Positions 60,559 to 62,572 of a stretch of 64,000 bases of DNA are shown piece by piece. The notes beneath the pieces are model-generated. The model made no database searches. It saw nothing but the letters and a program-made list of their open reading frames with translations, and was not told where the DNA came from. The translations under genes were made by a program, and so were the position numbers. Location: the NCBI GenBank assembly GCA_965205485.1, contig OZ242180.1, positions 4,544,001-4,608,000 on the forward strand, in the 5' to 3' direction. How positions within the stretch are numbered: the stretch's first letter is position 1; each line of letters begins with the position of its first letter. Origin of the DNA: Candidatus Latescibacterota bacterium (GTDB taxonomy: Bacteria > Latescibacterota > UBA2968 > GCA-2709665).

Positions 60559-61539
60559 ATGATTCGATTCGTTGCATGCGTCGTGTTCCTGCTGGTCCCG
60601 GGATTCTTTCCGCCGGGTCCGGCGGAAGCCCAGAGTGTCGGTGACGCGGTACCGACGTTCTCGCTTACCGGGCTGGACGGAAAAACCTACGCCTCGGCGT
60701 CTTACAAGGGAAGTGTTCTGGCTCTCTATTACCTGGGCCATAACTGACCCACCTGCCGGGCGGCGGGTCCGTCCATAGAACAGCAGATCTGGAAGGCGTT
60801 CCAGGATGACGGCCTGGCGGTCCTGGGACTTGACATCTACAATGGCACTCAGGCTCAACTCAGGGGTTTTCAGACAGCGTCCACGATCACGTTTCCCCTG
60901 CTGCTGCAGGCAGGCAGTATCAGGGGATCTCACGGAACCCACACGTTGCTGGTCGCGGACCGGGAAGGGATCGTCCGTCACATCGGGCGCGGCGCTTCGG
61001 GTCTCAGCGCCGCGGCGGCGAACATCCGGGAACTGCTGACGCTCCCGCCGCCGACAATCAGACTTCCCAGTACGTCGCTCGACTTCGGCGAGGACGTTCC
61101 TGCCGGTGAAGCCAGGACCGTTACCCTCGTCGTAAGGAACACCGGTGGCAAAGACCTCAGCATTACGAATCTTGAGTCCGACCTCGAGGGCGTCACATTC
61201 AGCCTGACGGCACTCACGGTCGCGCCTGGCGAACGTGCAACCGTCGATATCACCTTCACGCCCGCGGAGGGAGGACCTTTCTCCGGCACGATTACCATTT
61301 CCAGCGATGACCCTGAAAACGGAAGTGTCACGGTCTCGATTTCCGGAACGGCGGTCGTCGTCCCCGTCAATCCCAAGGCCGACTTCGACAATGACGGCGA
61401 AATCGGATTCAGTGACTTCGTCGCCTTCGCCCAGGCCTTCAGTACCGACGACCCGACCTTCGACCTGAACGGAAACGGCCTGGTCGACTTCCCGGACTTT
61501 CTGGAATTCGCAAGGAACTTCGGCAAACGGGTGCCATGA
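60559..61539 (+). CDS. Probable exported selenoprotein: UxxC redoxin + Ig-like domain + dockerin/EF-hand-like tail (326 aa, Sec63)
   Basis: ORF-track pieces 60559-60747 and 60946-61539 share a frame and are separated only by TGA 60745-60747. Read-through gives YLGHN-U-PTC-RAAGPSIEQQIWKAF..VLGLD..TFPLL, a continuous redoxin fold. AGGAGG RBS; signal peptide ending AEA-Q. Confidence 0.88.
60748..60787 (+). promoter_or_regulatory. Bacterial SECIS-like hairpin, paralogue 1
   Basis: GGCG-[GGTC]-CGTC apical stem-loop, with the loop starting 19 nt after the TGA; possible lower CTGC/GCAG stem. Confidence 0.6.
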
Positions 61540-61594
61540 GTTGGCGCTGGGCGTGTACACCCGCAGGATTGTCCCTTCCCGAAGGAGGTATCAC

Positions 61595-62572
61595 ATGTAC
61601 CGACTCCTGGTTGCCGCGGTGATCATGGGCCTCTTCGCGCCTGCGTCCGCATGGGCTCAGAAGGTCGGAGATGCAGTACCGTCCTTCTCGCTCACGGGGC
61701 TGGATGACAAGACCTACATGCCCGCGAATTATGCGGGTAACGTCTTCGTGCTCTACTACCTGGGCCATAACTGAGACCTGTGCAGACAGACGGGTCCGTC
61801 TATAGAAAGACAAATCTGGAAGGCGTTCCAGGATGACGGCCTGACGGTGCTGGGACTCGACGTCTATAATGGCAGCAAATCGCAATTGCAAGCCTTTCAA
61901 AGAGTCACCGGGGTCACGTTCCCGCTTCTCCTGCGAGCCGGCCGCGCATTTCCGAGAACGCTCGGCGTTGACCATACGCTTGTCGTGGACCGCAAGGGCA
62001 CGATCCGTCACATCGGGATACGCAAACCGGCGTCAATCACCGCAACGGCCGCGCGTATCCGGGAACTGCTGAGCGTCCCGCCGCCGGCGATCAAACTTTC
62101 GGGTAGGTCACTCAACTTTGGCGAGGACGTGCCAGCCGGACTATCCAGAACGCTCACCCTGGTCGTTCACAATACCGGCGGTGTATCGCTTACGATCAGC
62201 GACATTCAATCCGATCTCGAGGAAATCTACATCAACACCACTGAGGTATCGGTCGCGGCAGGAGACAGCGCGAGGGTGGCGATCACATTCACGCCGGCCG
62301 AAACCGGTCCCTTCTCCGGCACGATTACGATTACCAGCGACGATCCGGAAAACAGAAGCATCACGGTCGCTGTTTCCGGAGCGGTCATCGTTGTCCCCGT
62401 CAATCCCCGGGCCGACTTCGACCATGACGGCAAAATCGGCTTCAGCGACTTCGTCGCCTTCGCACAGGCTTTCAACACCCGCAATGGCACCTTCGACCTG
62501 GATGGAAACGGCCTGGTTGAATTCCCGGACTTCCTGGAATTCGCCAGAAACTTCGGCAAGAGCGTGCCATGA
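61595..62572 (+). CDS. Probable exported selenoprotein, paralogue 2 (325 aa, Sec60)
   Basis: ATG 61595 after AAGGAGG. In-frame TGA 61772-61774 gives YLGHN-U-DLC-RQTGPSIERQIWKAF and continues in frame into ORF 61847-62572. Same domain layout; signal peptide ending AWA-Q. Confidence 0.88.
61775..61805 (+). promoter_or_regulatory. Bacterial SECIS-like hairpin, paralogue 2
   Basis: AGACG-[GGTC]-CGTCT perfect 5-bp stem, with the loop starting 19 nt after the TGA. Confidence 0.62.

Follow-up and report, generated by a model that had tools for sequence, protein, structure and literature searches.

Two exported selenoprotein redoxins within a proposed, so far undescribed envelope redox module

Selenoproteins of the AhpC/TSA type with a UxxC site are a known kind; what is new in the case described here is their export and their gene context. 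The part of the catalogue PMC13188914 available to us includes, as predicted selenoprotein families, a Prx-like thiol:disulfide oxidoreductase family (PF00578) and a Redoxin family (PF08534), both UxxC and both defined there by domain and motif alone, and the available part of PMC2398784 includes Prx-like 1 and 3. The two genes described below (copy 1 and copy 2) resemble these families by their Pfam domains, the U-x-x-C motif, the interchange of Sec and Cys and a bacterial SECIS. They differ from them by the addition of a signal peptide, an Ig domain and a dockerin-like tail or T9SS tag, by an F-x-G-x-x-U-x-x-C site, by the lack of cis-Pro and by the partnership with a barrel. The main text of PMC13188914, whose supplements could list such selenoproteins, has no mention of Latescibacter, secreted, signal peptide, dockerin, periplasm or type IX.

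Proteins of the TlpA/ResA/CcmG group, which are fed by DsbD/CcdA, share with the redoxin the fold, the N-terminal position of the nucleophile and export. The redoxin has neither their W-x-x-W-C motif nor their cis-Pro and probably acts outside the outer membrane, whereas the TlpA/ResA/CcmG pathways end, to our knowledge, in the periplasm. The Omp28-related selenoprotein (GOS_C, NF045500) and Omp28/HBP35 of Porphyromonas gingivalis are, like copies 1 and 2, exported thioredoxin-fold proteins, and HBP35 reaches the surface as T9SS cargo and has thioredoxin activity according to the part of PMC2907840 available. Copies 1 and 2 occupy the same place in the module but are of another thioredoxin-fold family, and they match neither Omp28 nor NF045500 at E 0.01; a search of the genome for NF045500/Omp28, run without positive control, was blank. 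The available part of PMC12152298 mentions neither Omp28 nor an operon. In the literature covered (subscription journals and supplements lying mostly outside it) we found no description of a module made of TlpA, DUF6029 and a redoxin, nor of secreted T9SS-type selenoproteins.

The window, i.e. the whole stretch of DNA that was analysed, is 64,000 nucleotides long and belongs to a Latescibacterota genome assembled as one contig (97% complete); its near kin carry the label Candidatus Latescibacterota. The host bacterium is sponge-associated, the two best habitat-labelled holders of the stretch being sponge metagenomes, with runs that share little of it left out of the habitat reading; no RNA dataset is listed among the sequencing runs that hold it. 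The module comprises the following features:

58421..58960, plus strand: TlpA/ResA-type periplasmic thiol-disulfide reductase, first gene of the module; W-A-T-Y-C-K-P-C with cis-Pro kept; Pfam AhpC-TSA/Redoxin, best NCBIfam model ResA, under cut-off
58941..60524, plus strand: DUF6029 outer-membrane beta-barrel of about 24 strands (Pfam PF19494); C505-x-x-G-x-C510 in the last extracellular loop
60559..61539, plus strand: selenoprotein copy 1, 326 aa; signal peptide, U63-P-T-C66 redoxin domain, one Ig-like domain, dockerin-like tail with two EF-hands
60745..60747, plus strand: Sec codon (TGA) of copy 1
60762..60773, plus strand: SECIS-type hairpin of copy 1; stem GGCG/CGUC, loop GGUC 18 nt after the UGA
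61595..62572, plus strand: selenoprotein copy 2, 325 aa; U60-D-L-C63, architecture as copy 1
61772..61774, plus strand: Sec codon (TGA) of copy 2
61788..61801, plus strand: SECIS-type hairpin of copy 2; stem AGACG/CGUCU, loop GGUC 18 nt after the UGA

The read-through products of copies 1 and 2 are 63% identical, and an AGGAGG ribosome site precedes each gene. Residues 4-14 form the most hydrophobic stretch of both proteins, corresponding to the signal peptide. Pfam recognises AhpC-TSA/Redoxin (PF00578 at 45-50 bits for a cut-off of 26, PF08534 at 31-39 bits for a cut-off of 26.6, with U-x-x-C present), one HYDIN-type Ig domain and an EF-hand-like tail. Copy 2 is a paralogue carried by 4/15 genomes of the genus. 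Scans for promoters and terminators did not reveal where the operon starts or stops. A Gfo/Idh/MocA gene lies divergently before the module (window 57002-58054) and a PP-loop (tilS-like) gene after it (window 62943-64000); both neighbours recur across the order, even where the redoxin has moved away.

The starting point, an earlier note made from the window alone, was that each gene has a TGA at the first position of a U-x-x-C motif. This is what the sequence reads, with a TGC three codons on in each case, and the frames stay open past the TGA to give products of 326 aa (N-U63-P-T-C66) and 325 aa (N-U60-D-L-C63). The TGA is not an assembly error: contigs from samples X1 and X3 of one study, the former perhaps the source sample, cover both codons and are identical there. 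As proposed, gene callers split both genes. The nearest database proteins are fragments of 194-241 aa named choice-of-anchor D or DUF1573 proteins, and public databases contain nothing but such truncated fragments.

The genome carries selA, selB, selC and selD, all scoring over cut-off, with selA, selB and the tRNA-Sec gene (selC) adjacent. SelD is itself a selenoprotein (C-G-U-A-A-K; G000:C1:2394761-2395684, minus strand) whose gene has a 7-bp SECIS with a GGUC loop at 17 nt. At the level of the class, selA is present in 115/121 genomes; no selA was found in G018, G032 and G281, three genomes that do have TGA members, the assemblies of the first two being fragmented and 80% and 91% complete. 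That the TGA might be a true stop, be recoded as Trp or Cys, or represent a shared lesion is very improbable. Anticodon TCA occurs on tRNA-Sec and on no other tRNA, tRNA-Trp having CCA, and both genes terminate with a TGA used as stop; the conserved column with its Cys counterparts, the SECIS and the purifying selection described below also argue against this alternative.

A match with a single TGA is present in each of the 14 other genomes of the genus. The redoxin domain as query finds a match in 54/61 related genomes, and the alignment as query in 91/151 genomes of the phylum, at 144 places; by our own count 137 of these places hold one TGA, 4 are free of stops, 2 have a TAA and 1 combines a TGA with a TAG. 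The codon column was then read in 70 loci, where 92 rows were reduced to 79 after removal of 7 TlpA-type rows, 1 off-column row and 5 duplicates. It contains 73 TGA, 5 TGT and 1 TGC, i.e. TGA or Cys and never Trp. The sole TGG row (L126:4536) was dropped, as it comes from another redoxin in which U follows W and lies one column away. This protein (plus strand, genome G054) is a third redoxin with G-A-S-W-U-G-A-C, near Cys and Sec copies, and is another likely selenoprotein. Genomes with Cys copies also carry TGA copies, and Cys-form relatives are numerous in the protein library.

Outside the hairpin, dN/dS for copy 1 is 0.13 upstream of the UGA and 0.16-0.22 downstream (12/14 orthologues), and for copy 2 it is 0.15 upstream and 0.12-0.27 downstream (4 sequences). 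Both sides of the UGA are thus under purifying selection. Each sequence-level finding that the earlier note had named beforehand as fatal to its claim (no Sec machinery, a residue other than Cys at the column in homologues, relaxed selection after the TGA) turned out to be contradicted, and both genes almost certainly encode selenoproteins. They belong to a class-wide selenoprotein family hidden in databases as truncated "choice-of-anchor D" proteins (91/151 genomes of the phylum). Among 53,743 TGA-joined frame pairs of the genome, only 10 pass a filter on coding score and SECIS loop, both genes included, which is more than chance would give; this filter is partly circular because the loop list was picked after seeing these genes. 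A scan on coding score alone gave 484 candidates and was dropped as noisy. At G000:C1:2888581 (plus strand) an in-frame TGA lies in C-Y-U-Q-G-G-Y-R with a high coding score on both sides; from the motif we take it to be probably a rhodanese-type selenoprotein.

Two findings go beyond the earlier note: a SECIS hairpin, and a conserved partnership with the two genes upstream (TlpA and the DUF6029 barrel). The hairpins of copies 1 and 2 fit the bacterial SECIS consensus as it appears in the available part of PMC13188914. The GGUC loop is the same in both copies (18 nt after the UGA) and in the genome's own selD (17 nt), with stems of 4-5 bp in the copies. Folded alone, the hairpins reach -9.3 (copy 1) and -5.3 kcal/mol (copy 2) for a model limit of -7.5, so that copy 1 passes and copy 2 does not; for copy 1 a second possible register, of 6 bp and with loop CGGGU, is slightly more stable when folded alone. 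Taken whole, the 80 nt that follow each UGA fold no better than dinucleotide shuffles (z 0.48 and -1.72). In all 65 distinct Sec genes the hairpin is stronger than in synonymous shuffles (mean z -2.08, compared with -0.69 for 6 Cys genes), and the loop Gly codon is GGT in 49/53 cases, compared with 645/2096 (31%) in gene bodies. The covariation score of the hairpin is 0.202 versus 0.116, with 0/500 shuffles as high, a value inflated by relatedness; 73% of cells pair, the register shifting between subfamilies. Over the 12 codons after the UGA synonymous divergence is 0.28 in copy 1 (0.47-0.62 elsewhere) and 0.06 in copy 2 (0.30-0.54). The hairpin is under selection as RNA.

The redoxin has a TlpA-type thioredoxin fold with an N-terminal nucleophile, and its predicted model (pLDDT 95) is ResA-like, with a TM of 0.82-0.85 to ResA; by score it lies below the curated ResA/TlpA models (38-40 bits for a ResA cut-off of 170). 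A midpoint-rooted FastTree tree of 124 domains, a subset of those collected, needs 12 Sec/Cys changes, and within the class Cys copies are interspersed with Sec copies. Because deep support in this tree is weak, we claim no ancestral Sec or Cys state. The cis-proline of disulfide reductases is found in 0/45 members of the Sec clade (1/46 rows could not be parsed) and in 2/113 Cys relatives; Asp, Glu or His stands in this column across the family (His in copy 1, Asp in copy 2).

Since the family lacks the usual cis-proline, metal capture, for uptake or detoxification, is a serious rival. The U/C-x-x-C pair and the Asp/Glu/His at the cis-Pro position would then bind a soft metal (Cu, Hg or a metal cofactor) on the outer face of the barrel and hand it to the CxxGxC loop, TlpA just keeping the thiols reduced. 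TlpA is a reductant of copper proteins, which counts for this explanation. Three observations speak against it: the barrel model contains no TonB-type plug domain, no metal-handling genes recur in 17 loci whose ORFs were inspected by eye, and Sec at a catalytic position is typical of oxidoreductases in the available part of PMC13188914. We consider metal capture unlikely, though it is the strongest of the alternatives to an outer-face redoxin kept reduced by the module.

The peroxidatic motif of peroxiredoxins is T/S-x-x-C, and in copies 1 and 2 the U sits instead at the first motif position. In the selenoprotein catalogue the peroxiredoxin motif appears as T-x-x-U (available part of PMC13188914), and peroxiredoxins have an Arg at the cis-Pro position (available part of PMC2757866). 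Arg occupies this column in 0/45 members of the Sec clade and 1/113 Cys relatives; one column further it is found in 75/113 Cys relatives and 1/45 members of the Sec clade. The Cys relatives thus give some support to the explanation that the redoxin is a stand-alone exported peroxidase or antioxidant, in periplasm or at the surface, the barrel and TlpA doing a job of their own (e.g. disulfide handling in secretion) and the linkage reflecting co-regulation, whereas the missing Arg of the Sec clade argues against it. Two facts of distribution favour it, namely four genomes with a redoxin and no barrel match, and the unlinked redoxins of genus g6, expanded and with many Ig repeats.

The linkage itself argues against a stand-alone enzyme, as it is kept through four rearrangements and in several phyla. 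In 75 barrel loci drawn from the best 80 of 296 matches, and labelled Latescibacterota, Gemmatimonadota, Eisenbacteria and Neomarinimicrobiota, TlpA adjoins the barrel in 75/75 and a family redoxin lies within 5 kb of it in 50/75, in four orders or orientations. The 25/75 of these best-match loci with no redoxin within 5 kb comprise 2 at contig ends and 23 with the flank read, mostly from one genus whose redoxins are elsewhere. Co-occurrence is tight as well: the 151 genomes of the phylum, which as kin are not independent, divide into 87 with redoxin and barrel, 4 with the redoxin only, 3 with the barrel only and 57 with neither (87, 4, 2 and 22 within the class, with the same dependence). Taken with the docking reported below, this makes a stand-alone antioxidant improbable, slightly more so than metal capture. 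In one genome two near-identical module copies (L201 and L202) have the redoxin split over two frames after the TGA, by frameshift or assembly error.

The module extends to the Bacteroidota, where 30/121 genomes have the barrel. In the 20 barrel loci read from among these genomes, CxxGxC is present in 20/20 and TlpA is adjacent in 19/20. The third slot holds an Omp28-domain protein in 13/20 and a redoxin of this family in 2/20 (15/20 together); no Pfam-recognised exported partner was found in the other 5/20. As an Omp28-domain protein or a family redoxin stands in the same place, the third slot is that of an exported thioredoxin-fold protein of varying family. Several Bacteroidota loci (L272-L285) also have, near the module and often divergent from tlpA, a T9SS-tagged protein of about 250 aa with no recognised enzyme domain.

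The AlphaFold2 model of the DUF6029 barrel (pLDDT 88.9) has about 24 strands by our own count from secondary structure. Loop mapping on this model places CxxGxC in the last and most conserved extracellular loop, and C505, G508 and C510 are invariant in 48 barrel sequences. In the model the cysteine pair closes a beta-hairpin and could be a structural disulfide. A fold search of the PDB with the barrel returned generic barrel matches only, with no specific solved relative and no like complex.

Docking was modelled for relative G018, whose barrel is 55% identical to that of the window, with its adjacent Cys redoxin paralogue. The pair scored 0.71, the best of 3 controls 0.43; by a rough calibration on our own alignments the score mark is reached by 116/157 solved complexes and 2/215 mismatched pairs. 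Runs agree in at least 89% of contacts and the pLDDT of the partner is at least 80. Each of the 34 listed barrel contacts belongs to an outer loop or to the outer end of a strand, and on the redoxin residues next to the active site take part; the barrel cysteines and the two active-site residues of the redoxin are not among the confident contacts. The prediction supports docking of the redoxin on the outer loops of the barrel in G018 and argues against a stand-alone enzyme.

We propose that SelB reads the in-frame hairpin, Sec entering the nucleophilic position of the U-x-x-C thioredoxin-fold site, and that copies 1 and 2, exported by their signal peptide, would be the outer member of a three-part envelope redox module. 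DsbD would reduce periplasmic TlpA, TlpA would reduce the CxxGxC pair of the DUF6029 barrel, and the redoxin would sit on the outer loops of the barrel and be kept reduced there, in this order and direction and by contact between the cysteine pairs. It would act as a cell-surface selenol/thiol reductase, tethered by its dockerin-like tail. The three-part set may carry reducing power to the cell surface, and we give the reading of an outer-face redoxin kept reduced by the module a probability of about 0.5. More tentatively, an undescribed TlpA/DUF6029/selenol redoxin relay might let electrons of the DsbD pathway cross the outer membrane by disulfide exchange via CxxGxC. Bacteroidota and several related candidate phyla would then have in common a counterpart of DsbD at the outer membrane, with copies 1 and 2 as its selenium version and as bacterial selenoenzymes exposed at the surface. 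Should the module work in the proposed way, it would explain how the outer-surface thiol enzymes of diderm bacteria stay reduced, and DUF6029 would gain a function. The idea is directly testable, since conserved Cys/Omp28 versions exist in culturable Bacteroidota.

A surface location has to be weighed against the ends of the proteins: copies 1 and 2 have a signal peptide and no T9SS sorting domain. Many Cys-form relatives end in a T9SS-type sorting domain or resemble lipoproteins, orthologues end in a T9SS sorting domain (e.g. L209, L212, L237, L290 and L291), and in family f3 of the class such a domain replaces the EF-hand tail. The genome encodes DsbD, SprA, nine PorV-family genes and two cohesin proteins with T9SS tags, and 24 of its ORFs have a terminal T9SS-type domain. 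The missing tag of copies 1 and 2 would suit a barrel acting as an export pore, for the redoxin or for polysaccharide, with structural or gating cysteines and no electrons crossing the membrane. The best fold matches of the barrel are 24-stranded usher pores (TM 0.4-0.5, 8% identity), and a role of DUF6029 in polysaccharide export was suggested from likeness to Wzi-type barrels in the available part of PMC9603273. Yet most orthologues are already T9SS-tagged or lipoprotein-like, the neighbour that is always present is a reductase, and genes for polysaccharide export do not recur in the 20 loci read; the export pore is therefore the least probable of the functional alternatives, and distinctly unlikely, compared with a redoxin kept reduced at the outer face.

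The tail had been called "dockerin-like" in the earlier note, and the term is a fair description in that two Ca-loop/helix repeats are visible; the score stays under the curated cut-off (NF041540 at E 1e-5, 25.7 and 23.7 bits for a cut-off of 29) and PF00404 is unmatched. Cohesin-dockerin surface assemblies have the same two repeats, and cohesin proteins exist in this genome; differences are the sub-threshold tails, the diderm host, scaffolds with T9SS tags and a binding that is putative. Genome-wide 95 ORFs carry the tail, at either end: 56 at the C terminus and many others directly behind the signal peptide. The idea of an obligatory C-terminal sorting signal is weakened by the 39/95 copies that are not terminal. 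In genus g6 (L127, L053, L128, L131-L133 and L137) the redoxins, away from the barrel locus and expanded, have long C-terminal extensions with Ig repeats, up to about 1,600 aa past the Sec. The 95 tails for only two cohesin proteins and nine PorV-family barrels could represent a large, putative cohesin-dockerin surface display in a diderm.
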